DNA of 63,992 nt, the filler included. It is 5 parts of 5 records of this genome, joined end to end, with 100 filler letters (N's around TTAATTAATTAA, not from the genome) between each part and the next. Parts side by side here need not be neighbours in the genome. Positions count along the whole stretch, not along the records: positions 20,822 to 50,232 come from DRR723986_8695; 4 more parts are not named here. The stretch is one strand, 5' to 3'. A program made the position numbers and the translations under genes. The notes beneath the pieces are model-generated. The model worked only from the letters and a program-made list of their open reading frames with translations. It ran no database searches and had not been told where the DNA came from. Shown in pieces: positions 20,722 to 44,130 of the stretch. Numbering within the stretch: position 1 is the first letter of the stretch; each line of letters opens with the position of its first letter.

Positions 20722-20821
20722 NNNNNNNNNNNNNNNNNNNNNNNNNNNNNNNNNNNNNNNNNNNNTTAATTAATTAANNNNNNNNNNNNNNNNNNNNNNN
20801 NNNNNNNNNNNNNNNNNNNNN
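20722..20821. other. Artificial contig spacer
   Basis: N44-TTAATTAATTAA-N44. Confidence 0.99.
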
Positions 20822-20822
20822 C

Positions 20823-22307
<1,485 letters not shown>

Positions 22308-25047: not shown

Positions 25048-25470
25048 CTATACGATATCGCGCAATAATTGGATCAATTGATCTGTTTCGGTTTTTCCAA
25101 GTCGATCAAGTATTGCTGCGTCCTGATCCTCGATCTCTTGCCGGATCTGCATCATGCGTTTTCGGCCAAGAGCGGTTGGCAATACATTGATCTGACGGTG
25201 ATCGTTTTGCGCGACCTGCCGGTGTACCAACCCGTCAGAAACCATGCGGTCCACCAACTTTGTCAGCGTCGGAGGATTCATCAGAACGATCTCGGCCAGC
25301 TCGCCCATAGTCAGGCGGTTTCCCATGTCCAACGTTTCCAGAATGCGCCAGGCTTCGACCTGTATGCCGTGTTTGCGCAGGCGCGCGTTTAGCGATGTTG
25401 TTACCTTTCGATGAGCTGCAGCCAGCGCGTAGGAAAGGTAGTTCTGGATTGGGCTACTGCTGTTTTCCAT
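25048..25470 (-). CDS. MarR family transcriptional regulator
   Basis: WRILETL..LTMGELA..PTLTKLVDRM..GLV.R..DHR; ATG at 25470 after GGTGAG. Confidence 0.9.
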   Translation of the reverse strand: MENSSSPIQNYLSYALAAAHRKVTTSLNARLRKHGIQVEAWRILETLDMGNRLTMGELAEIVLMNPPTLTKLVDRMVSDGLVHRQVAQNDHRQINVLPTALGRKRMMQIRQEIEDQDAAILDRLGKTETDQLIQLLRDIV

Positions 25471-25571
25471 GTGTCTCACCAAAGTCTGATGGGGAGAATT
25501 TAGTTGACTTGGAAATTAAATTCAAATGGAATGTGTCAATTCCCGTTCCATGTGGAAAGGGCGTGACCGCC

Positions 25572-26693
25572 ATGACACCGCTTTCAATTGTTCCAAGAAT
25601 TCCAACAGAGTTGGAGGAACTGCAGGAATACTCCTTGTCACGCAGCAAGGGAACCTATCGGGTTGCGCTGCTCATACCGTTGTGCGGCTCAGCTGGGCTG
25701 TGGGCGCCGTCTTGCATCTCCAGTGCGCAAGTCGCCGTGGAAGAGCTGAATAAAAGTGGCGGTATCGACGGGCGCAAGGTTCAACTCATCATGATTGACG
25801 CCGCTTTGGAAGCCAGCATTTCAATCGAAGAGACGGTCAATGATCTCATTGCGACCGGATCCATCGACGCGATTGTCGGCATGCATATTAGCGCGATCCG
25901 TCAGCGTTTAAGCAAAGTCGTCAGACAGCGGATACCCTATGTCTATACCCCTCTCTATGAGGGTGGAGAAAGTACCGCAGGCTTGTTCGCCATAGGTGAA
26001 ACCCCGCAAGAGCAGCTGGGGCCATCCATGGAATTGATCCAAAAACAATATCGACCCGACAGTTGGGCCTTGATTGGCAACGACTATGTCTGGCCCCGCA
26101 CGTCTCATCTTTTTGCAAAATCAAAGCTGCGTGAAATGTCAGTTGGCCTGACATATGAAAAGTACTTGCCGTTTGGGTCACACAACATCGCCCGATATGT
26201 GGAAGAAATCGGAGCCTCGGGCGCAGAGGCTGTTTTGATTTCTCTTGTCGGGCAGGATGCGGTGGCATTCAACCGGGCCTTTGGCAATGCAGGTCTGCAC
26301 AATCGTATTGTGCGGTTGTCCTGTGCCGTCGAAGAAAATGGCCTGTTGGCTGGCGGGTCACGCAACAGCAAACGACTTTTTGTAGCGTCTTCGTATTTCG
26401 CCGCCCTTCCTACCGAAGCGAACGCTGCTTTCAAAGAGCTGTACTATGGGCTGCACGGAGATCAGGCTCCGGCTCTGAATGCGCTTGGGCAATCGACATA
26501 CGAAGGGGTTCATTTTCTGGCCGGATTGATGCAGGGGAACGCCAATGTCTGGCGCGAACATTGCGTTTCAGTCGCACTTCCTGTGATTCATCGCAGTGGT
26601 CGAAAGGGGTTGTCTTCGAACACGAGTGAGCGTGCGCCGATCTATCTCGCCCGTGCTGACGGGTTACGATTTGAGGTAATAAAGGAAATATAA
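25572..26693 (+). CDS. AmiC-like cytoplasmic amide-sensing protein (type 1 periplasmic-binding fold, no signal peptide)
   Basis: LAV/VAVEELN..GGIDGR, GMHISA.R, YVYTPLYEGGE, IGNDYVWPR; no hydrophobic leader. Confidence 0.75.
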   Translation: MTPLSIVPRIPTELEELQEYSLSRSKGTYRVALLIPLCGSAGLWAPSCISSAQVAVEELNKSGGIDGRKVQLIMIDAALEASISIEETVNDLIATGSIDAIVGMHISAIRQRLSKVVRQRIPYVYTPLYEGGESTAGLFAIGETPQEQLGPSMELIQKQYRPDSWALIGNDYVWPRTSHLFAKSKLREMSVGLTYEKYLPFGSHNIARYVEEIGASGAEAVLISLVGQDAVAFNRAFGNAGLHNRIVRLSCAVEENGLLAGGSRNSKRLFVASSYFAALPTEANAAFKELYYGLHGDQAPALNALGQSTYEGVHFLAGLMQGNANVWREHCVSVALPVIHRSGRKGLSSNTSERAPIYLARADGLRFEVIKEI

Positions 26694-26827: not shown

Positions 26828-28423
26828 TTGCTCTGGATTATTTTGTTGGTGCTTGCCGCACTGCTTGTCCTTGTCGGGATTTGGTTCCTTCACCGCTTCT
26901 ATGCCAAGGCGACACTGGACACCGCGCTGGTACGAACCGGTTTTGGGGGTCGACGTGTCGTGACCGATGGCGGCTGTGTTGCATTGCCCATCCTGCACCA
27001 AATGCAAAAAGTTTCGATGGGGGCGCTGAATTTTTCGACCAAACGTGAAGGGCGCGACGCTGTCCTGACACGCGACCAAATGCGTGCCGATATCACATTC
27101 GAATTTGAATTGAGGGTCTCACCAACCGAAGTTGGGATTGCGACAGCTGCTCAGGCTCTGGGGCAGCGGATTGCACGGGGCGGCGATACGATCCATGAGG
27201 TTCTGTCCGGTGCTCTGGTCAATGCCATCCAGAATTCTGCGGCATCGCGCACTCTGGAAGAAATTCACCTGGATCGCAGCGGGTTCGCACAAGATGTGGC
27301 CAAAGCCATAGACGAGCAAGCCGAGCGTCTTGGCCTGAAACTTGTGTCAGCTTCGTTAATTTCGGTGGATCAAAGCGACCAGACCCAGTTAAACGAAAAC
27401 AATGCCTTCAATGCTCAGGGTATGCGACGTCTGGCCGAATTGGTGGCAGACCAACGCAAAGCACGGGTTCGTGTTGAGACAGAGGCGGAAACTGCGGTAC
27501 GCGAAAGCCGCCTGGCGCAGCACCAGCGGCAGTTGGAGCTTCAACGCGAAGAACGCGAGGCCGAAATCGCCCAGAATGAGCACCTCAACAAGCTAGAGGT
27601 GGATGCGAAATCCCGGGAAAACCAAGCCCGTGATCTGGCAACACTGGCAAGCGAGACTGCACGGATCGAGAATGATCGCCGTACCAAGGCCACGCAGATT
27701 GAGCAGGACGAAACCCTCAGAAAATCTGAGATGGCGGCCATACTTTCTCTCGAAGAAACCAAGATCAGCAACGACATCCAACTTGCCAGAAAAAGAGCCG
27801 AAGAAGCCGAGGCCAAGGCAGCAGAAGAACAAGCCCGGGCCATGGTGATCCTGGCGGCTGAACATGTACAGGCTCAGAAAGAGCGCGCCATAGCCGAGCG
27901 GGAACGTGATATCGCCCGCATCAGACAGGAAAAAGAGCTGGAGCTGGAGGACGCACGGGTCAAGCGCGACGTTGACACGATGCTGACCAGAGCACGGGCA
28001 GATGCGACCGCCGCGGTGCAGGCTGCCGACGCGAACAAAGCCCGGATGGAAGCCGAAGCCGCCGGAAACGTGGCGCTGAACTCGGCAGAAAACACACTGA
28101 GCGAAGCCGTCATTCGTATGCGTCTTGAAGAACGCAAGCTGGACCGTCTGCCCGAAATCATGACGCAGATGATGAAGCCGGTGGAAAAAATCGACTCGAT
28201 AAAGATCAACCAGATTTCCGGTGCGGGCACCGGTGTTGGTGGCAACGGCACCGCTGAGGGCGTGGATGGCGCATTTGGAGCCGCCATGGATCAGATCCTT
28301 GGCATGGCGGTTCGTCTGCCCGCGATGAAGCAAATGGGCGAAGAAATCGGGTTGGACTTTGATGCCAACCTGGCCGGACGGACCGCCGATTACGCCAATC
28401 GTATCAAACCCAAGAAAGAATGA
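26828..28423 (+). CDS. Flotillin/SPFH (band 7, YqiK-type) protein
   Basis: N-terminal TM, ALVRTGFGG..V..GG..LP SPFH start, long EA-rich coiled coil, C-terminal LPEI..MKPVEKIDSIKI flotillin motif; GGGGAG RBS then TTG. Confidence 0.88.
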   Translation: MLWIILLVLAALLVLVGIWFLHRFYAKATLDTALVRTGFGGRRVVTDGGCVALPILHQMQKVSMGALNFSTKREGRDAVLTRDQMRADITFEFELRVSPTEVGIATAAQALGQRIARGGDTIHEVLSGALVNAIQNSAASRTLEEIHLDRSGFAQDVAKAIDEQAERLGLKLVSASLISVDQSDQTQLNENNAFNAQGMRRLAELVADQRKARVRVETEAETAVRESRLAQHQRQLELQREEREAEIAQNEHLNKLEVDAKSRENQARDLATLASETARIENDRRTKATQIEQDETLRKSEMAAILSLEETKISNDIQLARKRAEEAEAKAAEEQARAMVILAAEHVQAQKERAIAERERDIARIRQEKELELEDARVKRDVDTMLTRARADATAAVQAADANKARMEAEAAGNVALNSAENTLSEAVIRMRLEERKLDRLPEIMTQMMKPVEKIDSIKINQISGAGTGVGGNGTAEGVDGAFGAAMDQILGMAVRLPAMKQMGEEIGLDFDANLAGRTADYANRIKPKKE

Positions 28424-28472: not shown

Positions 28473-29693
28473 ATGTCAGTGAACAGACGCACCTTTTTAT
28501 CCGGAACGGCAGCCATCGCGGGGGTTTCAATGTTACCGCGGGCCACATTGGCCGGAGACACGATCAAACTGGGCTCAATTCTCGACACGTCGGGTATCTT
28601 TGATGCTTATGGCAAGCCGATGGATATGGCGATGCGTCTTGCTGTAGATGAAATCAACGCTTCGGGCGGTCTGCTTGGCAAGCAGGTCGAAGTGCTGGCA
28701 TATGACACCCAGTCGGACATGGCGCTCTACTCTCAATACGGTCAGCAATTGACCCGGCAGGATAAAGTGGATGTCGTTCACGGGGGTATTCTATCGGCCT
28801 CGCGTGAGGCGATCCGCCAGACTATGCGCAAGACCAAGACCTTGTATTTCTATAACGTGCTCTACGAAGGTGGTGTCTGTGACCGCAACACTTTTATCAA
28901 CGGGGTCACACCAGCCCAACAGGTCGAGGCACTGGTGCCCTACGCCATGGGAAAATCGGGCAAGAAAGTCTATATTCTTGCGGCTGACTACAACTACGGC
29001 CAAATCACAGCACGCTGGATCCAAAAATTTGTCGCCGACAATGGTGGCGAGACCGTAGGGGTCGACTTCTTCCCGCTGGATGTTAGCGACTTTGGCTCGA
29101 CCATCGCCAAAATCCAGACGGTTGGCCCGGATCTGGTGATCGCGCCGCTTGTCGGCGGGGCGCATTTGTCATTCTTCCGTCAATGGGCAGCGGCCGGCAT
29201 GAAAGATCGCATTCCGCTGGCATCGACCACGATGGGTGTCGGCAACGAGCACAAAGTCCTGACCCCCGAAGAAGGCAATGGCATCATGGTGGCTTACAAC
29301 TACAGTCAGGAACTGGATACGCCTGCCAACACCGCCTTTAAGGAAAAATGGACCGCGGCCTATGGCGGCAGCGATATGATCCACGAAATCGCGGTTTCCA
29401 ATTACCAAGGCTTGCTGACCTGGGCCGAAGCCGTTCGCCAGGCGGGTTCGATTGAGCGTGACGCGGTCATTGCCGCGCTAGAGGGCGGGCTCTCTATCGA
29501 CGGCCCAGCTGGCAAGGTAGCAGTAGATCCCAAGACCCACCATGCCGTGCTTGATGTCCATATCATGGAGATCGAAAATCAGGGCATGCGCGTGATCGAA
29601 ACGCTGCCACAGCGCCAGCCGATTGATACCCAATCAGTTTGCGATCTCTCAGCTAATCCGGACGACAACACCCAGTACGAAATCCAGATCTAA
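28473..29693 (+). CDS. Urea/short-chain amide ABC transporter substrate-binding protein (UrtA/FmdD-like), Tat-exported
   Basis: NRRTFL twin-Arg leader; LAVDEINASGGLLGK, SASREA, YNVLYEGG, AADYNYG. Confidence 0.85.
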   Translation: MSVNRRTFLSGTAAIAGVSMLPRATLAGDTIKLGSILDTSGIFDAYGKPMDMAMRLAVDEINASGGLLGKQVEVLAYDTQSDMALYSQYGQQLTRQDKVDVVHGGILSASREAIRQTMRKTKTLYFYNVLYEGGVCDRNTFINGVTPAQQVEALVPYAMGKSGKKVYILAADYNYGQITARWIQKFVADNGGETVGVDFFPLDVSDFGSTIAKIQTVGPDLVIAPLVGGAHLSFFRQWAAAGMKDRIPLASTTMGVGNEHKVLTPEEGNGIMVAYNYSQELDTPANTAFKEKWTAAYGGSDMIHEIAVSNYQGLLTWAEAVRQAGSIERDAVIAALEGGLSIDGPAGKVAVDPKTHHAVLDVHIMEIENQGMRVIETLPQRQPIDTQSVCDLSANPDDNTQYEIQI

Positions 29694-29786: not shown

Positions 29787-30653
29787 ATGGACCTCTCATT
29801 CGTCATAATGGTGGAAATGCTCTACGCGGTCTCCTCACTGATCCTGATCAGCGCAGGACTTGCCGTCGTGTTCGGCATGATGAAAGTGATCAACCTTGCC
29901 CATGGCGAGTTCATGATGATGGGCGGTTACGCGACTATCACAGCCGTGCAACTGGGCATAAATATCTTTGTCGCAATGTTGGTGATTGCCCCAATCACAG
30001 TTGGGCTGATCGGTCTTATCGTAGAGCGTTTGGTAATCCGGCATCTATACGGCCGGCTGGTCGACACCATGCTGGCCACCTGGGGACTGAGCCTGTTCTT
30101 TATCGGGTTGGCCACAATGATTTTTGGCAACACCACGACGGGTATTTCCACACCGATCCCGGGGTTCACGATCGGTAACTATCAGATCAATGGGTATAAT
30201 TTCTTTATCATCGTGATCTCTATCCTGCTTTTGATGTCGATGCTTGCCGTGCTCAAGGCAACCCGGGCTGGGCTGATTGCAAGAGGCACGATGCAACGAT
30301 CTGACATTGCTGCGGCGCTTGGATATAGCCCAGACCGCATCTATATGGCGACCTTCTTTTGCGGCTCGGCGCTCTCTGGTTTGGCGGGTGCTGTGCTTGC
30401 CCCACTGGTCGGGTTGGTGCCCACCTCAGGCGGCGCCTACATCGCCAAGGCGTTCATTACAGTCATCGCCGGTGGGCCGTCACTCATCGCCGGTCTGTTT
30501 TCAAGCGCCGGGCTGTTTGGATTGGTCAATCAAATTTTCACCTTCTCGATCTCTCCCGTGATGGGAGAAGTTGCGCTTCTGGTCGCAGCAGTCATCTTGC
30601 TCCGCCTGCTGCCGCAAGGCATTACCGGGAAATTCTTCAAAGGAAAATTGTGA
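29787..30653 (+). CDS. Branched-chain/urea-type ABC permease (UrtB/LivH-like)
   Basis: GLAVVFGMMKVINLAHGEFMMMGGY, LATWGLSL, AFITVIAGG. Confidence 0.9.
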   Translation: MDLSFVIMVEMLYAVSSLILISAGLAVVFGMMKVINLAHGEFMMMGGYATITAVQLGINIFVAMLVIAPITVGLIGLIVERLVIRHLYGRLVDTMLATWGLSLFFIGLATMIFGNTTTGISTPIPGFTIGNYQINGYNFFIIVISILLLMSMLAVLKATRAGLIARGTMQRSDIAAALGYSPDRIYMATFFCGSALSGLAGAVLAPLVGLVPTSGGAYIAKAFITVIAGGPSLIAGLFSSAGLFGLVNQIFTFSISPVMGEVALLVAAVILLRLLPQGITGKFFKGKL

Positions 30654-31690
30654 TGCCGGGCAACCTGCAAAGAGATGTCTTTACGACGATCAGCGTCACG
30701 GCCTTGTTGATCTGGGTCATGCCGATGATGATCTCCACTTACACACTGACAGTCCTGATCATATACGGAATGCTTGGCCTGAGCCTTGGCCTGATCTGGG
30801 GGTTCGGCGGTATCTTGTGTTTCGGTCAAGCGGCTTTCTTTGGCTTGGGAGCCTATACATATGCCATAGCCGCAATCAATATCGGCGAAAGCACCGGGCC
30901 GATGATCCTTGCAGTGCTGGTTCCGGCCATTTTTGCAGCGCTTCTTGGGGCGCTGATGTTTTATGGGCGGCTGACGGATGTCTATCTTGGCGTCATCACT
31001 TTGGTCGTGACGCTGATCCTGTTCAAGTTCATAAACTCTACGGCCGGGCCGCAATACGTGATCGGAAAAGCCCGTCTGGGCGGCTTCAACGGCATTCCCG
31101 GTTTTCAAACGTTGAACGTGCCGGGAAATCCTGATGCCTATATCTGGGGGGATGCGTATTTCTATGTCTGCGCTGTGATCCTAGCCATCGTTTTCCTGTT
31201 GGTCTCGGTCCTGCTGCGCTCCAGCTTCGGTCGAATTGCTGTTGGGATCCGCGAAAACGAAACCCGGGTTTCCCTAATGGGTTACGACATTCGCGCCCGT
31301 AAAACGGTCCTGTTCGCTGCCGGAGCAGCCATCGCCGGGCTTGCCGGGGCGCTGTTTGCCAATTGGGGTGAGATCGTCACCCCCACTCTATTTTCGCTAG
31401 GTCAATCGGCCGAGATCATCATTTGGTGCATCGTCGGGGGGCTTGGCACGCGCCTGGGCCCGATCCTCGGCGCTGCTGGACTTGCCTATCTCAAGTTTCT
31501 TTTGGGACAACAAAGCCTTGTCGACAACACACTGATCACCGGTCTCATTCTGGTGTTGTTCGTCCTGTTCCTGCCACGCGGAGTCGTACCTGCCTTGGCC
31601 GGGATCTGGCAGATCAGTTTTGGTCGTCGCCCCCTTGGGCGGATTCATCAGGCTCGACGATTGCGCAACAGGGAGCGGAATAATGGCTGA
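30653..31690 (+). CDS. Branched-chain/urea-type ABC permease (UrtC/LivM-like)
   Basis: LIWGFGGILCFGQAAFFGLGAY, FGR..GIRENETR..GY, IVGGLGT..GPILGA. Confidence 0.9.
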   Translation: MPGNLQRDVFTTISVTALLIWVMPMMISTYTLTVLIIYGMLGLSLGLIWGFGGILCFGQAAFFGLGAYTYAIAAINIGESTGPMILAVLVPAIFAALLGALMFYGRLTDVYLGVITLVVTLILFKFINSTAGPQYVIGKARLGGFNGIPGFQTLNVPGNPDAYIWGDAYFYVCAVILAIVFLLVSVLLRSSFGRIAVGIRENETRVSLMGYDIRARKTVLFAAGAAIAGLAGALFANWGEIVTPTLFSLGQSAEIIIWCIVGGLGTRLGPILGAAGLAYLKFLLGQQSLVDNTLITGLILVLFVLFLPRGVVPALAGIWQISFGRRPLGRIHQARRLRNRERNNG

Positions 31691-32399
31691 AATTGTTCTC
31701 GAAACTCATGGGCTGACCATGCGATTTGGTGGTGTCGTCGCTTCCAACAATGTGGATTTCAAGCTACGCGCGCGCGAATTGCGATGTCTGATCGGCCCAA
31801 ATGGTGCAGGAAAATCGACCTTCTTCAAATGTGTGACTGGCTTACAAACCCCGACAGAAGGTCAGGTATTCATGCGGGGGCAGGAAACGACCCGCTGGAT
31901 GCCTCACGAGATTGCCTCGCTGGGCGTGGGGATCAAAACCCAGACGCCAAATGTCATGGACTCTCTAAGTGTGTTTGAAAACATCTGGCTCGCAGCGCGC
32001 CGGTTTCATCGACCAACAGAGGCGAGCCGCAAAACCCAAGAGGTGATTGAACGGCTGGCTCTGAATTCAATTGCTCGAAATGATCTTGGGCAATTGGCCC
32101 ATGGTGAACGCCAACGTGTCGAGCTGGGTCTGGTCGCGGTGGGCGACCCTTGGCTCGTGCTACTGGATGAACCCGCAGCCGGGATGAGTGCAGAAGACGT
32201 CGACCGCATGACCAGCATCATTCACGAGCTCAACAAAACCGCCGCCATCGTAATCGTAGAACATGACATGCAGTTCATCCGTTCAATCGCCAAAGACGTG
32301 ACAGTTTTCCATCAGGGCGCGGTCTTGATGGAAGACCATGTCGAACAGGTCATGTCGAACCCGACCGTGCGTAATGTATATCTTGGAAAGAAGGCCTGA
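31683..32399 (+). CDS. ABC ATP-binding protein (UrtD/LivG-like)
   Basis: Walker A GPNGAGKST, LAHGERQ signature, LLDEPAAG, VEHDM. Confidence 0.93.
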   Translation: MAEIVLETHGLTMRFGGVVASNNVDFKLRARELRCLIGPNGAGKSTFFKCVTGLQTPTEGQVFMRGQETTRWMPHEIASLGVGIKTQTPNVMDSLSVFENIWLAARRFHRPTEASRKTQEVIERLALNSIARNDLGQLAHGERQRVELGLVAVGDPWLVLLDEPAAGMSAEDVDRMTSIIHELNKTAAIVIVEHDMQFIRSIAKDVTVFHQGAVLMEDHVEQVMSNPTVRNVYLGKKA

Positions 32400-32400
32400 C

Positions 32401-34758
32401 ATGGCGGATGACGTCACTGAAATACTAGAGGTAAAGGGCCTGTCGGGGGGATATGGCAAAGTGCCGATCCTGCACGGGATAGAGTTCTCGGTTGCCGAAA
32501 ATGAGGTTGTCGGCATTCTTGGCCACAACGGTATGGGCAAGACGACCCTATTGAAAACGATCATGGGCTTTTTGCCCGCTAGCTCTGGATCGGCACGGTT
32601 TCATACCACTGACATTACCCGCATCTCGCCTTTCGAACGGGCCGGGCTTGGGTTGGGATACGTGCCTCAGGGGCGTGGGATATTCCCGCAGCTTTCGGTG
32701 CGTGACAACCTCCGCTTTGCTTGGCACGAATATTCAGGTGCCTCGGAAAACGACGTGATGGAGGCCGTGCTCTCTGATTTCCCACGCTTGCGGCCGCTTC
32801 TCAATCGAGAAGGCGGGGCTTTGTCCGGAGGCGAACAGCAATTGCTGGCTTTGGCCCGTTGTTTGATGGGAGATCCGGATTTCCTGCTATTGGATGAGCC
32901 GACCGAAGGCATCCAGCCCTCGATCATCGAAGAAATGGCCGAGACCCTTCTTCAACTTCGCAAAAGCCGGGGATTGTCAATTCTTCTTGTCGAGCAGAAT
33001 TTCGACTTTATCGCCGATCTGTCGGATCGGGTTCTGGTTCTCGAACGCGGACGGATCACCGCAGAGTTGAGCCGCACCGATCTGTCCGATCAGACCAAAG
33101 TTGACCAGTTCCTGGGGTTTGGCGCAGCGAGGTCAACCCGCGGGCAGGCAGCATCACAACCCACTGGCGTTGTTCCGAAAAAATCTGAAACCCCAGCACC
33201 AGCCCGGCAAATATCCGAGCCGCTGCCCGCATATTTGGTGACAAACATGACTGTGAAACGACCCACCCTTTCGCAAATGCGTGATATGGCCACTCGATTT
33301 GGAATGAGCTTGACCGATACAGAACTGGCCGAGTTTTCCGAAATCATGGAGCCCTATATTCAGGCCTATGACCGGCTGGATTCCACGCCAGACAATTTGC
33401 CCCCGGTCAGGTACCCCAGATCGCCGGGACATTTCCCCGATTTCGCCGAAAACCCCCTGAATGCCTGGTATGTGAAAACTGACGTTCGGGGCGCACCTGA
33501 CGGTCCGTTGCGAGGTAAACGAATAGCTCTGAAGGACACCATATGCCTTGCCGGGGTGCCGATGATGAACGGATCATCGATTATGGAGGGCTATACGCCG
33601 GAAATCGACGCGACCATTGTCACACGGATGCTTGACGCCGGCGCTGTGATCGCTGGCAAGTCCCATTGTGAGAACTTTTGCCTATCCGGCGGCTCGCATA
33701 CCAATGCGAAGGGGCCGATCCAGAACCCATGGAAGCACGGGTACATGGCGGGCGGTTCATCAGGTGGATCTGCTGCGCTGGTTGCAGCCGGAGAAGTCGA
33801 CATGGCCATCGCCGGGGATCAGGGCGGTTCCATTCGCATTCCGTCGTCGAATTGTGGCGTGTACGGAATGAAGCCCACACACGGATTGGTGCCTTACACG
33901 GGTGTGATGCCTATCGAACAGACCATCGACCACGTCGGGCCAGTGACCAACACAGTCGCGGACAATGCCCTATTATTGGAGGTTCTGGCAGGAGACGACG
34001 GGCTGGACCCCCGCCAATACTGCCCTCAGACATTTCGCTATACCGAAGCGCTGGGGCGTGGGGCACAGGGGTTACGGATCGGTATACTCAAGGAAGGGAT
34101 ACATCGCCCTGAAAGCGATGTAGATGTCGACCAGAAGGTTCTTGCTGCCGCCGAAAGATTCCGCGAGCTTGGTGCCCGGGTAGAAGAGGTTTCGATCCCC
34201 GAGCATCATCTGGCGGTGGATTGCTGGACCGCGATCACCGTTGAAGGTCTACAAGACCATATGATGCATGGCAATTCCGGCGGAACCAACTACCGGGGGC
34301 TGTTCCTGCCGTCGATGATGGACCACATGGCACAGTGGCGATCCCGTGCTGATGAATTGACCCATTCGCTTAAGGTTTGCATGTTTTTGGGCGAGTTTTT
34401 TCAGAAACAGTATCGCGGACGTTTCTACGGCAAGGCACAGAACCTGATGCGCAAGGTGAACGAAAAATACGCAGACGCCCTAACGCAATACGACCTGCTT
34501 TTGATGCCGACAGTTCCGATGAAGCCACAGGAAATTCCACCCGCCGATTGCTCAATCAGTCTCTATGTTCAGCGGGCCTTTGAGATGATCGGCAACACCG
34601 CGCCATTCAATGGCGGACTGCCCGCTATGAACGTACCCTGCGGTTTAAGCGAAGGATTGCCAATTGGTATGATGCTCGTCGGGCCAAAATATGGTGAACT
34701 GAAAATATACCAGGCCGCCCATGCTTTCGAGCAGAGCGGTGACTGGCGCGCCATGTAA
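32401..34758 (+). CDS. Fusion protein: ABC ATPase (UrtE/LivF-like) + amidase-signature amidase
   Basis: Single open frame of 785 aa. GHNGMGKTT, LSGGEQQ, LLLDEPTEG, VEQN are followed by a linker, then ALKD, CENFC, GGSSGGS, GDQGGSIRIP. Confidence 0.88.
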   Translation: MADDVTEILEVKGLSGGYGKVPILHGIEFSVAENEVVGILGHNGMGKTTLLKTIMGFLPASSGSARFHTTDITRISPFERAGLGLGYVPQGRGIFPQLSVRDNLRFAWHEYSGASENDVMEAVLSDFPRLRPLLNREGGALSGGEQQLLALARCLMGDPDFLLLDEPTEGIQPSIIEEMAETLLQLRKSRGLSILLVEQNFDFIADLSDRVLVLERGRITAELSRTDLSDQTKVDQFLGFGAARSTRGQAASQPTGVVPKKSETPAPARQISEPLPAYLVTNMTVKRPTLSQMRDMATRFGMSLTDTELAEFSEIMEPYIQAYDRLDSTPDNLPPVRYPRSPGHFPDFAENPLNAWYVKTDVRGAPDGPLRGKRIALKDTICLAGVPMMNGSSIMEGYTPEIDATIVTRMLDAGAVIAGKSHCENFCLSGGSHTNAKGPIQNPWKHGYMAGGSSGGSAALVAAGEVDMAIAGDQGGSIRIPSSNCGVYGMKPTHGLVPYTGVMPIEQTIDHVGPVTNTVADNALLLEVLAGDDGLDPRQYCPQTFRYTEALGRGAQGLRIGILKEGIHRPESDVDVDQKVLAAAERFRELGARVEEVSIPEHHLAVDCWTAITVEGLQDHMMHGNSGGTNYRGLFLPSMMDHMAQWRSRADELTHSLKVCMFLGEFFQKQYRGRFYGKAQNLMRKVNEKYADALTQYDLLLMPTVPMKPQEIPPADCSISLYVQRAFEMIGNTAPFNGGLPAMNVPCGLSEGLPIGMMLVGPKYGELKIYQAAHAFEQSGDWRAM

Positions 34759-34770
34759 GGGAGCCAAGCT

Positions 34771-36528
34771 ATGTCTATCCTCAATGAAAGCCTTGCAAGC
34801 CGGATTTCCGGTTGGTCCAATGCCCGGGACACCCCTGCGGAAGCCACCGCGCCGACGAATGGTCTGTCCTATGTACGCGGAGCATGCGAACCGCCACTTG
34901 CCTATGTAACCATCCCCCAACTTTTAAGGGATGCGGTTTCTCGCTTTGGGCCGCGCGATGCTGCGGTGTTCTGCGAACAGAATGTCCGGATGAGTTATTA
35001 TGATTTGGATCGGGCTGTAGATGAACTCGCCTCGGGGTTTCTGGCGCTCGGGTTGGAAAAGGGGGACCGCGTCGGGATCTGGTCTCCGAACCGGTACGAA
35101 TGGGTCCTCACGCAATTTGCAACTGCACGGGCAGGCCTGATTTTGGTCAATATCAATCCGGCTTATCGCTTGACCGAGTTGGAATATGCGCTGAACAAAG
35201 TTGGCTGTAAGGCGCTTGTCGCAGCAAAGTCCTTTAAAACATCAAACTATGATGAAATGATCCGTTCTCTTGCACCCGAGCTGGAACACGCCTCGCCAGG
35301 CCGGTTGCAAGCGGCCAGACTGCCTCAATTGCGCAGTGTTATCCTCATGGATGATGCTCCGGGACCGGGGGCTTATTCGTTCAAACAGCTTCAGAACCTT
35401 GGCGGACCCGCACAACAATTGCGGTTATCACAGATCGACAGTGCGCTCAGCCCGGATGATGCGATCAACGTTCAGTTCACCTCTGGCACAACGGGCAGCC
35501 CAAAAGGCGCGACGCTTTCGCACTATAACATCGTCAATAACGCACGCTACGTCACCGACCGTATCCACCTGACAGAGACTGATCGGCTGGCCATCCCGGT
35601 GCCGCTCTATCATTGTTTTGGCATGGTCATGGGGGTTCTCGGCGCGGTCAGCAAAGGGGCTGCAATGGTGTTCCCAGGCGAAGCATTTGACGCCAATAGC
35701 ACACTTGACGCACTGGCTCAGGAAAAGTGCACAGCGGCTTATGGTGTGCCCACCATGTTCGTGGCCATGCTCGAAGCGCTCGAGGCAAAACCCCGTGATC
35801 TGTCCAGCTTGCGAACGGGCATAATGGCCGGTGCTCTTTGCCCCGTCGAAATCATGCAGCGGGTCAATTCCGAGATGAACATGGGGGATGTCACGATCTG
35901 CTATGGGATGACGGAAACCTCGCCTGTGTCCTTCCAAAGCTTTGTCGATGACACTACTGAAAAGCGGTGCGAAACCGTGGGCCGAGTGCACCCGCATCTT
36001 GAAGCAAAGATCGTCGGTCAGGATGGTCAAATTCTACCGGTTGGCACCCAGGGCGAGCTCTGCACACGCGGCTATTCCGTGATGAAGGGATATTGGGAAG
36101 ATGCCGAAAAGTCAGCAGACAGTATTCAAGATGGATGGATGCACACCGGCGATCTTGCGGTGTTCGATGCCGACGGATTTTGTACGATCGTTGGGCGGGT
36201 GAAAGACATGATCATCCGCGGGGGTGAAAACATTTACCCACGTGAGGTCGAGGAATATTTGATACGCCACCCTTTGGTCAGTGAGGTCCAGGTCTTTGGA
36301 ATTCCAGACGAAAAATTCGGTGAGGAAGTCTGTGCATGGGTTATTTCCAAGGCAGGTGAGACGCTGATCGAAGACCAACTGCGGGACTTCTGTCAGGGCC
36401 AGATCGCCCATTTCAAAGTTCCCAAGCACATCCGTGTCGTTGACGAATTGCCGATGACAATCACAGGGAAACCGCAAAAATTTGTCATGCGGGACATGAT
36501 GGTAGAGTGGCTTGAAAAGCGAACATAA
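34771..36528 (+). CDS. AMP-dependent acyl-CoA synthetase (FACL/ACSF2-like)
   Basis: [48 protein letters not shown]. Confidence 0.93.
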
Positions 36529-36734: not shown

Positions 36735-36752
36735 ATTGATGACAAGTCAACA
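36735..36752. promoter_or_regulatory. Candidate MarR operator ATTGATGACAAGTCAACA, copy 1
   Basis: Exact reverse complement of 37260-37277; contains the palindromic core TGAC-AA-GTCA. Confidence 0.7.
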
Positions 36753-36765
36753 AAGGGTGACCTGC

Positions 36766-37251
36766 ATGTCGATACGCGAGAAACAGCTTGAAGCGGAGTT
36801 GCGGAAGGTACGGGAGCTGGAAAGCAACCTGACCTTTCACATCGCGGTGATCAATAAGGTGTTGGAGCAGCAGACCACTCAGTTGATCCAAGATACGCCG
36901 CTGAGTTTGACGGGATACCGCGTGCTGCGGGTTGTGAGCATTTTTGACGAAATCACCATCTCTGAACTGAGCCGGCAAATGGTTGTCGACCGAGCGTTAA
37001 CAAGCCGCGTGACAGCCTCGCTGGTGAAACAGGGTTTCGTTGATTACCACGAAGATGCCGCAAATAAACGCAAGAAATTGATCCGGTTAACCCCCCAAGG
37101 CGCGGCGTTGGTCGAGACGTTGGCGCCGCGCTTTGAAAAGCGGCGGGCAATGTTGGAAGGCGCGATCGGAGAGACGGCGCTAAAGGGACTGTGGCAAGCC
37201 TTTGACTCGATTTCAGGGTTAGAACTCGATATCTCAAAATTGATCAAATGA
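36766..37251 (+). CDS. MarR family transcriptional regulator
   Basis: YRVLRVV..ITISELSRQMVVDRALTSR..L..GFV..NKRKKLIRLTPQG; ATG at 36766 after AGGGTG. Confidence 0.88.
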   Translation: MSIREKQLEAELRKVRELESNLTFHIAVINKVLEQQTTQLIQDTPLSLTGYRVLRVVSIFDEITISELSRQMVVDRALTSRVTASLVKQGFVDYHEDAANKRKKLIRLTPQGAALVETLAPRFEKRRAMLEGAIGETALKGLWQAFDSISGLELDISKLIK

Positions 37252-37259
37252 TGTATTTA

Positions 37260-37277
37260 TGTTGACTTGTCATCAAT
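37260..37277. promoter_or_regulatory. Candidate MarR operator, copy 2, overlapping a TTGACT -35 box of the tctC promoter
   Basis: TGTTGACTTGTCATCAAT; CATGAT -10-like hexamer at 37286-37291. Confidence 0.7.
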
Positions 37278-37332
37278 GATCAAACCATGATGCCCCAGTG
37301 GAACTGAACATGTTCGTATTTGGGAGGATCAA

Positions 37333-38289
37333 ATGTTCAAGGTATTTGCGACTGCAGCCCTAGTTGCTGTGACCACTCTGAGCGGTGCCGGAGCATCTTT
37401 TGCAGAAGAGTGGAAACCAAATGGACCAATCACGCTAAAGATTTCGTTTCGTGCCGGTGGGGGGACTGATACACAGGCCCGTCTGATCGCATCGGAACTG
37501 ACCAAGCGCCACGGTTGGGAGATCATTCCACAGAACGTTGCCGGCAAAGGCGGGGCTGTTATGGCCCGTGATCTGGTCGATGATCCTGCTGACGGCCTGT
37601 CCATCGGTATGACAGTGACAGAGGCGCTGACCTACAGCCCCCATGCCATCCGTGATGCGGGTTACGCCTTAGAAGATTTTGATCTTCTCACCACCACTGC
37701 GGGCACGCAGATGGCGCTGTTCGCCAAAACCTCTCGGGGCTGGAATAGCTTGCAAGATGTGATCGCCGCTGCAAAGGCAGGCGAATCTATCTCGGCTGGC
37801 GCATTTAGCCCTCGTGTTGCAGATGCGCTGTATTTGTTGTCACAAAAAACCGGCGTAGATTTCAAAACCGTAATGGTGAAAGGCGGCAAAGGCAGCATCA
37901 ATGGTGTCATGGCCGACGATCTGGACATTGCCTGGGGCGCAGGTCCGCAAAACAAGCTGGTCACCAGCGGCGAGCTGGTCAATCTTGTGTCCGCGGAAGA
38001 CGAAGCCCTTACCGCGTCACCGGATGCCCCCCTGCTGTCGGAATTTGGAGTCCCTTACACTTTTGGGGCAAAGTTCCTGTTTATTGCCCCCCAGGGCATA
38101 CCAGCCGAAGCCAAGATCACCCTGACCAATGCCATCATTGAAGTGATCAACGACAACAACACTGAGGCCAACGCCTTTATTACCAAAGCCTTTTCTGGCG
38201 TACAGGCCATCCACGGACCCGAGCTGGAGGCCTATATGGTTCAAAAGGCGGCCGACGATGCTGACTTGCTGAAAATCACAGCTGAATGA
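37333..38289 (+). CDS. Tripartite tricarboxylate transporter substrate-binding protein (TctC/Bug)
   Basis: Signal peptide, P..PITL.I.F.AGGGTD..AR, N.AG.GG, ADG. Confidence 0.88.
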   Translation: MFKVFATAALVAVTTLSGAGASFAEEWKPNGPITLKISFRAGGGTDTQARLIASELTKRHGWEIIPQNVAGKGGAVMARDLVDDPADGLSIGMTVTEALTYSPHAIRDAGYALEDFDLLTTTAGTQMALFAKTSRGWNSLQDVIAAAKAGESISAGAFSPRVADALYLLSQKTGVDFKTVMVKGGKGSINGVMADDLDIAWGAGPQNKLVTSGELVNLVSAEDEALTASPDAPLLSEFGVPYTFGAKFLFIAPQGIPAEAKITLTNAIIEVINDNNTEANAFITKAFSGVQAIHGPELEAYMVQKAADDADLLKITAE

Positions 38290-38303
38290 GCGTCTCCAGA
38301 CAC

Positions 38304-38329
38304 GTAGAGGGCAACACTTTGCCCTCTAC
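38304..38329. repeat. Perfect 11-bp stem-loop between tctC and tctB (probable mRNA stabiliser or attenuator)
   Basis: GTAGAGGGCAA-CACT-TTGCCCTCTAC. Confidence 0.7.
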
Positions 38330-38367
38330 CGTTGCAGGCTTGAGAAAGCACATAAAGGGAGAGCGGT

Positions 38368-38934
38368 ATGTCACCTCGGCAATCCGAGTTCATCTTTGCG
38401 CTGTTTGGCATCGGTCTTGGTGGTGTGATCCTTGGCATATGGATCCCACAAGATATTGACACCGGTATGATCGAGACGTTTCGGCGTCAGACCGTCATTG
38501 GCGATGCCTTTGTTCCGGTGATCGCTGGCGCGGCTATCCTGCTTTGCTCCGCTCTACATCTGCTGCAAACATTGATGCGCAGGTCCAGCTCAAGCGACAG
38601 GTTTGCATCTGCAACCCTAAGTTTGGCCGATCTCATGCTGTTGGGCTTGTTTTTTAGCATCATCGCCGGATCGTTGTTGATCATGTTCTGGGCGGGCCCG
38701 GCTTTGTCCCTGCTGAGCGAAAATGGCTATCGCGCCCTGCGAGGGCAGTTTCCTTACAAATACGCTGGTTTCTTCCTTGGCGGCACCGCGATGTTGATGG
38801 GGTGCATGACCTTGATTCAGGGACGGTTCCGATATGGGACATTGGGGATCGCGGTCCTGTCCACACTCTTTCTGATCGCTCTGTTCGACCTTCCGTTCGA
38901 CAGTATCATTTTACCACCGAACGGAGACTGGTGA
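38368..38934 (+). CDS. TctB-like small membrane subunit
   Basis: About 5 TM segments, C-terminal LF..LP.G motif, located between tctC and tctA. Confidence 0.7.
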   Translation: MSPRQSEFIFALFGIGLGGVILGIWIPQDIDTGMIETFRRQTVIGDAFVPVIAGAAILLCSALHLLQTLMRRSSSSDRFASATLSLADLMLLGLFFSIIAGSLLIMFWAGPALSLLSENGYRALRGQFPYKYAGFFLGGTAMLMGCMTLIQGRFRYGTLGIAVLSTLFLIALFDLPFDSIILPPNGDW

Positions 38935-40508
38935 TGGGTGTTTTTGACTACATCTGGGCGGGTGTTCTGGCCGTCTTTCAGGGTCCCGAAGCCTTTTCAC
39001 TGCTGGGCGTATCGGTGTCTATTACCCTGATCATGATCGCATTTGGCTTTTTTGCCGGCATCATCGGTGGGGCCACGCCTGGTTTGAGCGGTCCGTTCAT
39101 GATGGCGGTGTCGCTGCCCATTCTGCTATCTAGCTTTGGCTTTGGCCAAGAGGCACTATTGCCGGTGTTCGGATTTCTGGTTGGCGTGATGAAGGGCGCC
39201 ACGGTGGGGGGCGCTGTTCCGGCGATCTTGTTCAACACGCCGGGCACACCCGATGCTTTGCTGACGACATTGGATGGATATCCGATGGCTCAGAAAGGGC
39301 AGGCAGGAAAAGCCTTGAAAGTTGCGCATTTCTCCTCTGCGTCGGGGGATACGTTTTCCGATCTAGTGCTGTTCACTTGCGCACCCTTTCTAGCGGTTGC
39401 CGTGGAAAGCTATCTGGGCTTTCCGGAAAAGGCAGCACTCATCATTTTGTCCCTATCATTTGTCGCGGCCGTTGTTGGTGCCTCTCCCACCAAAGGGGTC
39501 TTTGCAGTTGGTCTGGGTCTTATGATCGCGTCGATCGGCACCGGCGAAGACAGCTATCCGCGCCTGTCTATGGGGTTGGATGCCCTCGCCAATGGCATCC
39601 CGTTGATCACGGCCGTGCTTGGTGTGCTGATCCTGGGGGAAATCTTTGTCTCGTTCGAAAACATGTGGCGCGAAAGACAAGCCAGCAAGATAGTCACGCC
39701 AGTGAAACAAAGCACAGACAATCGGCTGAGCTGGCAAGAGCGCCGTGTCCTGATGCCCTTTGTTGCGGTGTCGGCACTGATTGGCACGTTGGTCGGTGCA
39801 TTGCCCGGGATTGGGTCAACTCTGGCCGCAACGTTGGGCTATGCGACGGGGCAGAAAATGCACAAGGGCCCGGTGCCCTTTGGTGAGGGGACTCCAGAGG
39901 GGATCGCCGCAACCGAAGCCGCGAACTCTTCGGTATCTGGTGCCAACCTGATCCCGGTGTTGTCACTGGGCATTCCCGGCAATGTGGGCGCTGTTTTCCT
40001 GATCCTAGCTGCGGACAGTATCGGTGGCTTCAATCCGGGGCCTTCGGTGTTTCGATTCAGCACTCACGAAGTGAACCCCGAGCTGGTCATTGCCTTTGGA
40101 TTGTTCACCTGCATGGCGCTGGCCAATCTTTTGAACTGGACCACAGGCGCGCGTTTTATGTCGCTGGTCGGAGGGATGACACGCATTCCCAAAGCAATGC
40201 TGATGCCCTTTGTGCTGTTGTTGACCCTCACAGCAATCTACGTGCAGGAAACGCAATTTTCCTCCATGTTGTTTGCGCTCGGGTTTGGGGTGCTGGGCTA
40301 TCTCATGCGCAAGTTCTCGGTGCCGATTTTGCCCTTTGTTATCGCGTTTATCCTGTCTCGCAATTTGGAAGACACCATCCGCCAAGCCTTTGCTGTCACG
40401 GATGGCGATCCATACTTCCTGTTCCGCAGCCCCGCATCCATTGCCTTTGTCGCCCTGTCTTTTGTCGTGATCCTCTTTTTCTCACACCGGCGCAAAGCTG
40501 AAATCTGA
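38934..40508 (+). CDS. TctA family large transmembrane subunit
   Basis: GATPGL, GGAVPAILFNTPGTP, TLDGYPMA, GIAATEAANS, LSLGIPG. Confidence 0.92.
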   Translation: MGVFDYIWAGVLAVFQGPEAFSLLGVSVSITLIMIAFGFFAGIIGGATPGLSGPFMMAVSLPILLSSFGFGQEALLPVFGFLVGVMKGATVGGAVPAILFNTPGTPDALLTTLDGYPMAQKGQAGKALKVAHFSSASGDTFSDLVLFTCAPFLAVAVESYLGFPEKAALIILSLSFVAAVVGASPTKGVFAVGLGLMIASIGTGEDSYPRLSMGLDALANGIPLITAVLGVLILGEIFVSFENMWRERQASKIVTPVKQSTDNRLSWQERRVLMPFVAVSALIGTLVGALPGIGSTLAATLGYATGQKMHKGPVPFGEGTPEGIAATEAANSSVSGANLIPVLSLGIPGNVGAVFLILAADSIGGFNPGPSVFRFSTHEVNPELVIAFGLFTCMALANLLNWTTGARFMSLVGGMTRIPKAMLMPFVLLLTLTAIYVQETQFSSMLFALGFGVLGYLMRKFSVPILPFVIAFILSRNLEDTIRQAFAVTDGDPYFLFRSPASIAFVALSFVVILFFSHRRKAEI

Positions 40509-41368: not shown

Positions 41369-43681
41369 ATGAAAAAAGCCAATCCCCATGGACCCGTTGC
41401 CCGTGAGCTCGTCGGTGCCCTGTCTCCATCCGCTGTTCCGGGCCCTGATCCGGCGCTTTATGGCAGCGCCACAATGTCCCCGGCCAATCCGGTCGAGGTG
41501 CGTGGATTCCATACCGAAACCATCACCTACAAAGTGGGTCGGCTGGGGCTGGACGATCTGGGGGCGGTGCGTATCGCATTCCGCATGGTGTCAGACAGCG
41601 GCCAGCCACAATTCACCGATCCAACCGCGCCTAATTATGTCACGGCGCGATCAAACGGCGAAGGCAATCTGGTCCTGTCCTATGAAAAAACCGGCGGCAC
41701 GCGCCCGTGGTTCGAAGTTCTGACAGTACAGCAAAAGGGCGGGTATCTGCGCGAAGGTGAAGAAATCATCATCACCATGGGGGATACCTCGGGCGGGTCT
41801 CCCGGAATGCTGGCGCAGACCTTTATCGAAGGGGGGCGTGAATTCAAAGTCATGGCCGACATTCAGGGCACCCGGCATTTCGTCGAGGTGGCAGGCGATC
41901 AGCTTTTTGTGCCGATTGTTCCAGGGCCCAAATTCCTGTGGAAAGCCATATTGCCGACCCTGCGCCGCCCGAATGAGGCGTTTTTTCTGGGTCTGAAGAA
42001 CGAAGACATCTGGGGCAACCCAACGCTGCAGGCGGCAGGGACAAACCTGCGGTTGGAGGCCAGTGTGCCGGTCGCGGGCTTGCCGGACCATTTGACGTTC
42101 ACGCCAGAGGATCGCGCGCTGACCCTTGAAGGTTTGACGATCGCGGACGAAGGGGAGCTGCGGATCAAAGTCTTTGAAGGTGACACCTTGGTTGCCGAAG
42201 CGGGACCAATGATGGTCCGCGCGGGCGATGTGGCCAGCTATTGGGGCGATCTGCATGGTCAAACCGGTGAAACCATTGGCACCAACACCGCAGAAAGTTA
42301 TTTCGACTTTGCCCGCAACAAGGCATTTCTGGATGTGACAAGCCATCAGGCCAATGACTTTCAGATCAACGACGCATTTTGGGATCAGCTGAACGAGATG
42401 ACCGCCCAGTGGGATGAGCCGGGCCGATTTACGGTTCTTCCCGGATATGAATGGTCGGGCAACACGGCCATCGGTGGTGACCACAACGTGTTCTTTCGCA
42501 CCGAAGGTCGCCCCATCCGTCGCTGTAGCCATGCGCTGTTGGAGGGGACCAAAGACTACGACACCGACGCCAACACGCTGACGGATCTGTTTCAGGCGTT
42601 CCGCGAAACGGATGAGGATGTGGTCGTTTACGCGCATGTGGGCGGGCGGTATGCCAACATTCATTACGATCACGACCCAAATATCGAAACCGCCGTTGAG
42701 ATGCATTCAGCTTGGGGCACCTTTGAATGGGTGCTGACCGATGGGTTTGAAATGGGCCGTCGGGTTGGGATTGTGGCCAATTCGGACGGGCATAAGGGAC
42801 GCCCCGGGGCCAGTTATCCAGGCGATAGCCTGTTTGGCGCCTTTGGTGGATTGACCTGCTTTATCACACCGGAAAACACCCGCGACGGTATCATGGAGGC
42901 ACAACGTCGCCGTCACCATTACGCGACCACCGGATGTCGCTTGGCCATGGATGTGGCGCTGAGCTTTGAGAACGACAGCGTCGTGTTTGACCGCAACCCA
43001 ATCGGCAAACAGGATACGGCCCGTCATGTGGTGCGCAAGGTAATGATGGGTGATATTGTCGAAACCCCCAGCAAGACCGCACGCCTCTCACTCGATGTAC
43101 GCGCGCCACAGGGCATCGAACGGATCGAAGTGCGGAATGGCAAACAGGTTTTGAAAACCTTGCGCCCCTACAGTGAGGTCGATCTGGGCAACCGCATTCG
43201 CGTACTTTGGAGCGGCGCTGAATATCGCGGACGCGGCCGAAACACCACTTGGAACGGGTTGGCAAGCCTGAGCGACGCGGCAATCACTGGGTTTCAAACG
43301 ATCAACAAATGGAACCCGGATGCGTTGTTACAACAGCGCAATTCAGATCAGGTGATCTGGAAAACCATCACCACCGGCAACTACATGGGTTTTGATATCC
43401 AAACAAACAGCACCGAAGGCGCGCTAAAGATCACCACAAATCATGGCGACCTAAGCACCACTTTGAAAGACATCGGGATCGAGGATCAATGCCTCGATGC
43501 AGGTGGGCTTGAACGCATGATCAAAGTGTTCCGTCTGCCCGATGCGCCCTTGGATCGCCGGATCACACATGAAATGGACATCGATCTGCACGGTGACGGA
43601 GACAACCAGATCTGGATCGCCGTCTATACCGAAGACGGATATCAAGCCTGGTCCAGCCCGGCCTATGTTCAAGTCACCTAA
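41369..43681 (+). CDS. DUF3604-like / CehA-McbA-type PHP-fold metallohydrolase
   Basis: YWGDLHGQT, SHQAND, GYEWS, GDHNV, YAHVGG, EMHS, ANSDGH metal-ligand pattern; C-terminal AWSSP; no signal peptide. Confidence 0.72.
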   Translation: MKKANPHGPVARELVGALSPSAVPGPDPALYGSATMSPANPVEVRGFHTETITYKVGRLGLDDLGAVRIAFRMVSDSGQPQFTDPTAPNYVTARSNGEGNLVLSYEKTGGTRPWFEVLTVQQKGGYLREGEEIIITMGDTSGGSPGMLAQTFIEGGREFKVMADIQGTRHFVEVAGDQLFVPIVPGPKFLWKAILPTLRRPNEAFFLGLKNEDIWGNPTLQAAGTNLRLEASVPVAGLPDHLTFTPEDRALTLEGLTIADEGELRIKVFEGDTLVAEAGPMMVRAGDVASYWGDLHGQTGETIGTNTAESYFDFARNKAFLDVTSHQANDFQINDAFWDQLNEMTAQWDEPGRFTVLPGYEWSGNTAIGGDHNVFFRTEGRPIRRCSHALLEGTKDYDTDANTLTDLFQAFRETDEDVVVYAHVGGRYANIHYDHDPNIETAVEMHSAWGTFEWVLTDGFEMGRRVGIVANSDGHKGRPGASYPGDSLFGAFGGLTCFITPENTRDGIMEAQRRRHHYATTGCRLAMDVALSFENDSVVFDRNPIGKQDTARHVVRKVMMGDIVETPSKTARLSLDVRAPQGIERIEVRNGKQVLKTLRPYSEVDLGNRIRVLWSGAEYRGRGRNTTWNGLASLSDAAITGFQTINKWNPDALLQQRNSDQVIWKTITTGNYMGFDIQTNSTEGALKITTNHGDLSTTLKDIGIEDQCLDAGGLERMIKVFRLPDAPLDRRITHEMDIDLHGDGDNQIWIAVYTEDGYQAWSSPAYVQVT

Positions 43682-44053: not shown

Positions 44054-44130
44054 GGGCCGTTAGCTCATCTGGATAGAGCGCCAAATTCCTAATTTGGAGG
44101 CAGCAGGTTCGAGTCCTGCACGGCTCACCA
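44054..44130 (+). tRNA. tRNA-Arg (anticodon CCT)
   Basis: Acceptor GGGCCGT / ACGGCTC-A-CCA, D arm GCTC..GAGC, anticodon arm CCAAA-TTCCTAA-TTTGG, T loop GTTCGAGT. Confidence 0.95.

Follow-up and report, generated by a model that had tools for sequence, protein, structure and literature searches.

Why would the ATPase that drives a nutrient importer carry a complete catabolic enzyme on the same polypeptide? ATP-binding cassette (ABC) importers are usually thought to free their cargo into the cytoplasm for unattached enzymes. We pursued this question at a gene within a 63,992-nucleotide stretch of DNA (hereafter the window), in which the nucleotide-binding domain (NBD) of an importer ATPase resembling UrtE and LivF is read in frame with an amidase (Table 1). 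The original prediction, made from this DNA alone, held that no stop codon separates the two halves and that the fusion was selected rather than produced by the loss of a stop.

One frame from importer ATPase to amidase

The frame is open over its full 785 residues, and one polypeptide joins an importer NBD to a complete amidase. Its ATG, at 32401, stands one base past the stop of the preceding UrtD-like open reading frame (ORF), which ends at 32399. Every motif named in the original prediction is present—GHNGMGKT at residues 41-48, LSGGEQ at 141-146, LLLDE at 162-166, Lys378 within ALKD, GGSSGGS at 451-457 and GDQGGSIR at 472-479—and the anticipated linker of about 40 amino acids, rich in Pro, Ala, Ser and Thr, proved to be 42 residues long. 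Pfam finds ABC_tran at residues 24-168 (106 bits; cutoff 25) and Amidase at 361-766 (304.8 bits; cutoff 27) in the fused protein.

On the ATPase side, the Walker A, Q-loop, signature and Walker B elements that characterize ABC NBDs (PF00005) are all there, and all four, including Q90 of the Q-loop, are invariant in 44 fused sequences that extend down to 54% identity to the window protein. Residues 9-238 match the NCBIfam UrtE model TIGR03410 with 261.2 bits, below its equivalog cutoff of 285.8, so the 'UrtE/LivF' label proposed earlier stands as a family resemblance and falls as an assignment to the UrtE equivalog: by its profile score the NBD resembles UrtE but is not filed as UrtE.

On the enzyme side, residues 283-784 match PRK07235 (NF005565) over profile positions 1-505 of 506, with 757.3 bits against a cutoff of 545. 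Because this match runs end to end, we place the beginning of the amidase at Met283, with an N-terminal helical part of its own, rather than at about residue 361, and confine the linker to residues 241-282. The domain passes the cutoffs of both PF01425 and PRK07235 and contains the Ser-cisSer-Lys triad together with the GGSS(S/G)GS motif, which PMC11732141 gives as defining the amidase signature family. Lys378, Ser453 and Ser477 are invariant in the same 44 fused sequences, and the GGSSGGS motif is mostly so, position 455 being Ser in some homologues, as the motif allows. Judged by its profile match and these motifs, the amidase domain is complete and predicted to be catalytically intact.

Between the two domains, conservation collapses. 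Over 121 clusters, alignment columns have a mean majority fraction of 0.35 in the linker, against 0.86 in the NBD and 0.90 in the amidase, and Ala, Pro, Ser, Thr and Gln account for 64% of linker residues. The first eight or so positions (GAARSTRG) are conserved among close homologues and the remainder is hypervariable, with linker length ranging from 35 to 100 amino acids across 27 fused loci. The AlphaFold2 model, with a mean predicted local distance difference test score (pLDDT) of 67.8, is good over the NBD (mostly 77-93 per 10-residue block) and moderate over the amidase, where the alignment was shallow and where it places N-terminal helices at residues 290-300 and 306-328; residues 239-282 are assigned a pLDDT of about 30 (29-34) and no secondary structure.

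To establish whether the open frame is a property of the genome, the original prediction had called for a check of reads over the linker and for a search of domain architectures, and both agree with a genuine fusion. Contigs of four runs from four studies span 33063-33330 without insertions or deletions (X1 reaches over 32401-33330, X3 over the entire gene, X5 over 33133-33860 and X9 over 33063-33586). Among the contig differences listed, the sole change in the linker is a G>A substitution in X3 at 33148, read as Ala250 to Thr. In a collection of 5.8 billion proteins, 7951 homologues were scored; the best 120 all measure 781-807 amino acids, are 81-98% identical to the window protein and combine ABC_tran with Amidase. 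The genera named among these 120 are Thalassovita, Pseudophaeobacter, Phycobacter, Ruegeria, Nioella, Aestuariivita, Roseobacter, Boseongicola and Sneathiella, alongside a Rhizobiaceae metagenome-assembled genome (MAG). Where the sources name these proteins at all, they call them just 'amidase', as does NCBI.

Distribution, origin and a putative internal start

We found the fusion to be compact in sequence space and populous within it. The family of G001 was sampled with 301 genomes, of which 30 match at E <= 1e-100: 21 with an intact fused gene, 5 with a split-adjacent pair, 3 with an amidase lacking an adjacent NBD hit and 1 (G176) with a fused gene bearing a frameshift; the fused copy in G218 is cut by a contig end. 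Representatives of clusters at 50% identity include one full-length fused protein (P0122, 818 amino acids) plus several fragments that span the junction, and most of the 150 best hits at this level are stand-alone amidases of about 500 amino acids, matched only over query residues of about 283-785. The single full-length representative, set against the many fused close homologues, indicates a tight clade with many members.

In 14 related loci, the urtE-like gene ends in a stop and the amidase gene starts 3-144 nucleotides later. A maximum-likelihood tree of 63 amidase domains (27 fused, 14 split-adjacent, 9 others and 13 database representatives; L096, on the same contig as L004, and L002, whose amidase is cut by a contig end, were omitted) sets the 27 fused domains apart by a single branch, which requires one change and lies nested among the split-adjacent forms. 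This branch has a support of 83 in the Shimodaira-Hasegawa-like approximate likelihood ratio test (SH-aLRT). The fused clade comprises four lineages: subclade A, which includes the window (79-94% amidase identity to it), subclade B (57-62%), Aquibium and an Acidiferrobacteraceae MAG. A single old fusion of an adjacent urtE-amidase pair, kept since, is favoured by this topology but not proven, because the tree search was quick and its support moderate. The proposal that the fusion was selected, and is not a lost stop, is strongly supported by its presence in many genera within one clade, by the retention of the catalytic motifs and by a linker that varies yet stays open.

Several related arrangements came to light. 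G304 has two fused-gene copies of subclade B (C29:26991-29354 and C105:523-2895), each with its transporter and ligase genes. The frameshifted gene of G176 (C21:33765-36183, subclade A) is read in two frames, residues 1-209 and 208-785, and its NBD frameshift reflects a pseudogene or an error in sequencing. Several relatives, including members of Methylobacterium, Beijerinckia and Xanthobacter, encode their UrtD-like and UrtE-like ATPases in one shared open frame of about 470-540 amino acids, an NBD-NBD fusion (Table 1, last row). Two split-type loci (L007:4033-7105 and L018:6767-10048) contain two tandem paralogous amidase genes after urtE, about 50% identical to each other's class.

Within the fused frame, putative signals for starting a separate amidase have persisted. 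The last few linker codons are conserved, unlike the rest of the linker, and the codon aligned with the stand-alone amidase start is ATG in 26 of the 27 fused loci and GTG in the other (L089); at the protein level, Met stands at the amidase start in 121 of 121 clusters. Each of the four fused lineages has a Shine-Dalgarno (SD)-like motif ahead of this codon. In subclade A it reads GG[T/G][G/A]A, five or six bases upstream of the ATG, and all 13 loci share G at -10, G at -9 and A at -6. In subclade B it reads GA[A/G]AGGAT, each position being kept in 8-12 of the 12 loci; in Aquibium it is GGGAG and in the Acidiferrobacteraceae MAG GAGAGG. Split relatives show GGAGG-type motifs at the same place. 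The subclade-A codon that ends in the G at -10 is variously ACG, GTG, ATG, GCG, AAG, TTG or CAG, and because these encode seven different amino acids, conservation of the G acts at the nucleotide level.

Calculated energies point the same way. Anti-SD duplexes at the internal start range from -3.1 to -10.6 kcal/mol over the 27 genes (commonest value -6.5), compared with medians of -2.5 to -3.7 over each gene's in-frame codons; the mean rank of the internal start is the 14th percentile. Between -25 and +20, the mRNA of every one of the 27 genes has less structure than that gene's median window, and on average lies at the 9.5th percentile. An in-frame start codon, a properly spaced SD-like motif and locally unstructured mRNA thus coincide, as is typical where translation begins, and because these ancestral features were kept inside the fused frame, we infer that a free amidase of about 55 kDa, which the original prediction had not anticipated, is probably made by internal initiation beside the fusion.

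The operon and its probable substrate

The genes flanking the transporter separate fused from split loci. All 24 fused loci for which upstream DNA was seen have a flotillin gene immediately upstream of the gene for the binding protein; the same query found none in 12 split-adjacent loci. Directly downstream of the fusion, 26 of 27 fused loci (L099 being the exception) have a close homologue of the window's acyl-CoA ligase, whereas none of 13 split loci has one at >= 50% identity; the split locus L015 has a 32% relative. Because flotillin upstream and ligase downstream accompany fused loci and not split ones, we regard the fusion as one of three linked traits of a module.

The transporter genes themselves—binding protein, two permeases and the unfused UrtD-like partner—stand in urt order, and each product scores below its own urea equivalog cutoff (356 bits against 494.8 for the binding protein with the urea models; others in Table 1). 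The binding protein begins with a twin-arginine signal (28473-28560, MSVNRRTFLSG...), from which it is probably exported in folded form via the twin-arginine translocation (Tat) pathway. The true start of the UrtC/LivM-like permease is probably near 30650, and homology of the UrtD/LivG-like ATPase starts near residue 23 of its ORF. The flotillin combines the Band 7/SPFH and Flot domains typical of flotillins, but not the score of the FloT equivalog (57 bits against 700).

Urea is unlikely to be the substrate, because none of the transporter proteins reaches its urea equivalog cutoff and because fused genomes hold a separate UrtE-like gene, at about 42% identity. These scores suggest that the transporter is a paralogue of the urea system, probably serving another amide; our best guess is a small aliphatic or aromatic carboxamide, the acid of which would then be activated to a CoA thioester. 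The solved relatives (PDB matches) of neither the ligase nor the binding protein name the amide: the best matches of the ligase are diverse, comprising feruloyl-, oxalyl-, fatty-acyl- and malonyl-CoA ligases (E 1e-74 to 1e-59), and the best match of the binding protein, 8TG1, is named merely 'extracellular ligand-binding receptor'. An Rfam scan of the whole window at gathering thresholds returned only a tRNA (44054-44127) and no riboswitch that could name the substrate.

A second Peripla_BP_6 gene, AmiC-like, lies ahead of the flotillin. Its product matches 8TG1, UrtA structures and AmiC (1PEA, at 3e-16) in the PDB, its true start is probably Met60, near 25572, and no signal-like N-terminus was found in its sequence; we consider it a candidate cytoplasmic amide sensor, and no AmiR/ANTAR partner was seen near the gene. 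A homologue occupies the place upstream of flotillin in 12 of 13 subclade-A loci (the exception, L082-L090, has flanks that are too short) and in Aquibium (L011), and was found in only 1 of 10 subclade-B loci for which upstream DNA was seen.

Beyond the ligase, on the same strand, follow a MarR-family regulator and a TctCBA tripartite tricarboxylate transporter (36736-40508). Further along, at 41369-43681, a 770-amino-acid protein with a weak DUF3604 match (4e-15) adjoins a universal stress protein gene. The window consists of contigs joined by N runs around TTAATTAATTAA at 9807-9818, 20766-20777, 50277-50288 and 58345-58356, and a single contig piece (about 20822-50230) holds the entire operon. 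Genes touching the joins should not be read as truncated; an apparently broken gyrB at 20822-22307 was rejected on this ground, the gene being simply cut by a contig join.

Table 1. Positions of the fused gene, its parts and its operon in the window, with NBD-NBD fusions at other loci in the last row.
Feature	Position	Strand	Evidence
AmiC-like binding protein, no signal peptide	25395-26693	+	Pfam Peripla_BP_6 at 87-380
Flotillin	26828-28423	+	Pfam Flot PF15975, 4e-30; Band_7 PF01145, 8e-17
Substrate-binding protein, amide/urea family	28473-29693	+	Peripla_BP_6, 2.7e-80; 8TG1, 1e-54; UrtA; AmiC
UrtB/LivH-like permease	29787-30653	+	BPD_transp_2; UrtB, 242 vs cutoff 374 (bacterial model, 189 vs 250)
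UrtC/LivM-like permease	30359-31690 (ORF limits)	+	BPD_transp_2 at 128-403; UrtC, 237 vs cutoff 576
UrtD/LivG-like ATPase, unfused partner NBD	31620-32399 (ORF limits)	+	ABC_tran; UrtD, 235 bits vs cutoff 304
Fused gene	32401-34758	+	Translation: one open frame, 785 amino acids, stop-free
UrtE/LivF-type NBD of the fusion	32401-33120	+	Residues 1-240; Pfam, NCBIfam, motifs
Linker	33121-33246	+	Residues 241-282, 42 amino acids; rich in Ala, Pro, Ser, Thr and Gln; predicted disordered
Putative internal translation-initiation signals	33237-33249	+	GGTGA (33237-33241), 5-nucleotide spacer, ATG 33247-33249 (Met283)
RhAmidase-type amidase	33247-34758	+	Residues 283-785 plus stop; triad Lys378, Ser453, Ser477
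Acyl-CoA ligase (AMP-binding)	34771-36528	+	AMP-binding and AMP-binding_C; PRK12583, 806 bits, just under cutoff 832
NBD-NBD fusion loci	L016:6850-8433, L017:6931-8436, L069, L071, L073, L029, L020		UrtD-like and UrtE-like ATPases in one open frame

Readings of the fusion and comparison with known systems

The explanation that we favour, and hold to be rather likely, brings together a tethered intact amidase, hydrolysis at the membrane, a free amidase, the ligase, flotillin clustering and a single origin. A small carboxamide other than urea would be bound by the Tat-exported binding protein and pumped in, and would then be hydrolysed beside the cytoplasmic face of the transporter to ammonia and a carboxylic acid, which the downstream acyl-CoA ligase would turn into a CoA thioester. 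The same gene would also yield the free amidase of about 55 kDa through internal initiation. Because the closest solved homologue of the enzyme, RhAmidase, is a dimer, we propose that amidase domains pair, the free copy probably with the tethered one, or the tethered domains of neighbouring transporters with each other; flotillin may help to cluster such complexes in the membrane. Substrate channelling, raised in the original prediction, may follow from the covalent tethering. More speculative, and to us doubtful as it stands, is a membrane-bound 'amide uptake metabolon', in which the enzyme would be active only as a dimer formed with an internal-start copy or a neighbouring tethered copy, a dedicated flotillin would cluster the units and the acid would be passed on to the ligase.

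A number of points weigh against the explanation that we favour. The transporter proteins and the ligase all score below NCBIfam equivalog cutoffs. The SD-like motif is moderate overall and weak in 3 of the 27 genes (L003, -3.1; L088, -4.0; and L081, -4.2 kcal/mol); its conservation could partly reflect the conserved residues [V/G]-[T/N]-x-M or E-R-M-S-Y-M, and the mRNA may be open there simply because that stretch is lower in G+C. The 27 sequences are related, so that counts over them are not independent events, and the fused clade has an SH-aLRT support of 83 from a quick search. Finally, a hypervariable linker with no conserved docking surface fits mere co-expression equally well.

Co-expression is the alternative that survives best, as a possibility to which we give a minor share. 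It holds that the two halves work independently and that joining them fixes their stoichiometry or co-translation with no benefit from proximity, a neutral change that is hard to reverse. A linker of 35-100 residues that is hypervariable and predicted to be disordered would suit such independence, no conserved docking element was seen, the split-adjacent relatives evidently work with separate genes, and the keeping of an internal start suggests a continuing need for free amidase. However, a single stop in a variable linker of about 40 codons would suffice to undo the fusion, and no reversion to the split form occurs among the 27 fused rows of the tree. Co-occurrence of the fusion with flotillin and ligase genes that are absent from the split loci examined also looks like a co-adapted module.

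We consider it improbable that the amidase is a regulatory appendage, that is, a ligand-sensing C-terminal domain that tunes the ATPase in the manner of MalK or MetN trans-inhibition. Its position at the C-terminus of an importer NBD is where known regulatory domains sit, but the invariance of the Ser-cisSer-Lys triad and of most of the GGSSGGS motif in 44 sequences, and a span that covers the whole PRK07235 profile, mark a complete enzyme, and a floppy tether of 40 residues is unlike compact regulatory domains. Just as hard to credit is a polyprotein, translated as one chain and then cut in the linker by a protease to leave separate mature proteins. Exposed, disordered linkers rich in Ala, Pro, Ser and Thr would be accessible to proteases; yet the variable part of the linker holds no conserved cleavage motif, and the retained internal start would be redundant if cleavage freed the amidase. 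A sequencing error, assembly artefact or stop lost recently in this strain, conceivable for a draft of contigs joined by N spacers, is ruled out for practical purposes by the indel-free contigs of four studies over the junction, 120 fused homologue clusters, 21 fused genomes among 301 and the single clade formed by the fused genes.

At this locus, the enzyme that probably takes the first catabolic step is covalently tied to the motor of the transporter, and the tie has been kept across many marine bacteria in the company of flotillin and a probable acid-activating ligase. Should tethering speed the capture of scarce amides, it would offer a simple example, in bacteria, of metabolism coupled to transport, one that can be dissected genetically, and it would give bacterial flotillin a concrete, testable client. 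The database name 'amidase' hides the transporter half of the 785-residue protein, an annotation gap, and the likely production of two proteins from one frame likewise matters for genome annotation.

Full-text literature searches found no paper on an ABC ATPase-amidase fusion; an apparent match in PMC7643831 was rejected because it fell on the author name Urtecho. Importer ATPases with C-terminal accessory domains include MalK, MetN and OpuA (with CBS domains), in which these domains are regulatory and compact. The window protein likewise has an extra domain at the C-terminus of its NBD, but here that domain is an entire catabolic enzyme held on a long and disordered linker. With the UrtABCDE importer and the amide/urea-binding family (8HIC, 7S6E and 7S6F; AmiC, 1PEA), the window shares its protein families and the five-gene layout of a binding protein, two permeases and two ATPases, whereas its five proteins lie below the urea equivalog cutoffs and UrtE proper is without a C-terminal enzyme. 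Split relatives, such as those in Rhizobium rhizogenes (L012/L023), Roseicella frigidaeris (L010) and Pseudomonas morbosilactucae (L024), have the same transporter in the same order and an amidase of the same subfamily (51-60% identity). Unlike the fusion, these have a stop, a gap of 3-144 nucleotides and a canonical Shine-Dalgarno sequence before the amidase ATG, with no flotillin found upstream (0 of 12) and no close acyl-CoA ligase downstream (0 of 13).

For the enzyme itself, the closest solved homologue is RhAmidase of Rhodococcus sp. N-771 (3A1K/3A1I; E 1.5e-135, residues 6-496 aligned to 6-499). With numbering that starts at Met283, Lys96, Ser171 and Ser195 make up the triad of the window amidase, the same numbers as PMC11732141 gives for RhAmidase, and the modelled window enzyme likewise has an N-terminal helical part. 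That review describes RhAmidase as a free-standing dimer (about 107 kDa), encoded in a nitrile-hydratase cluster, whose N-terminal helical domain is unique; the window enzyme, by contrast, makes up the C-terminal half of a transporter ATPase. The nearest published idea to the fusion in the window is that of amidase-associated ABC importers for L-amino acid amides, with MeAmi_SBP of Mesorhizobium as the example (10.1101/2024.02.22.581678). As proposed for the window, an amide importer is encoded together with an amidase that uses its cargo, but the MeAmi_SBP system pairs an SBP_bac_5 binding protein with an FmdA_AmdA amidase, in separate genes.

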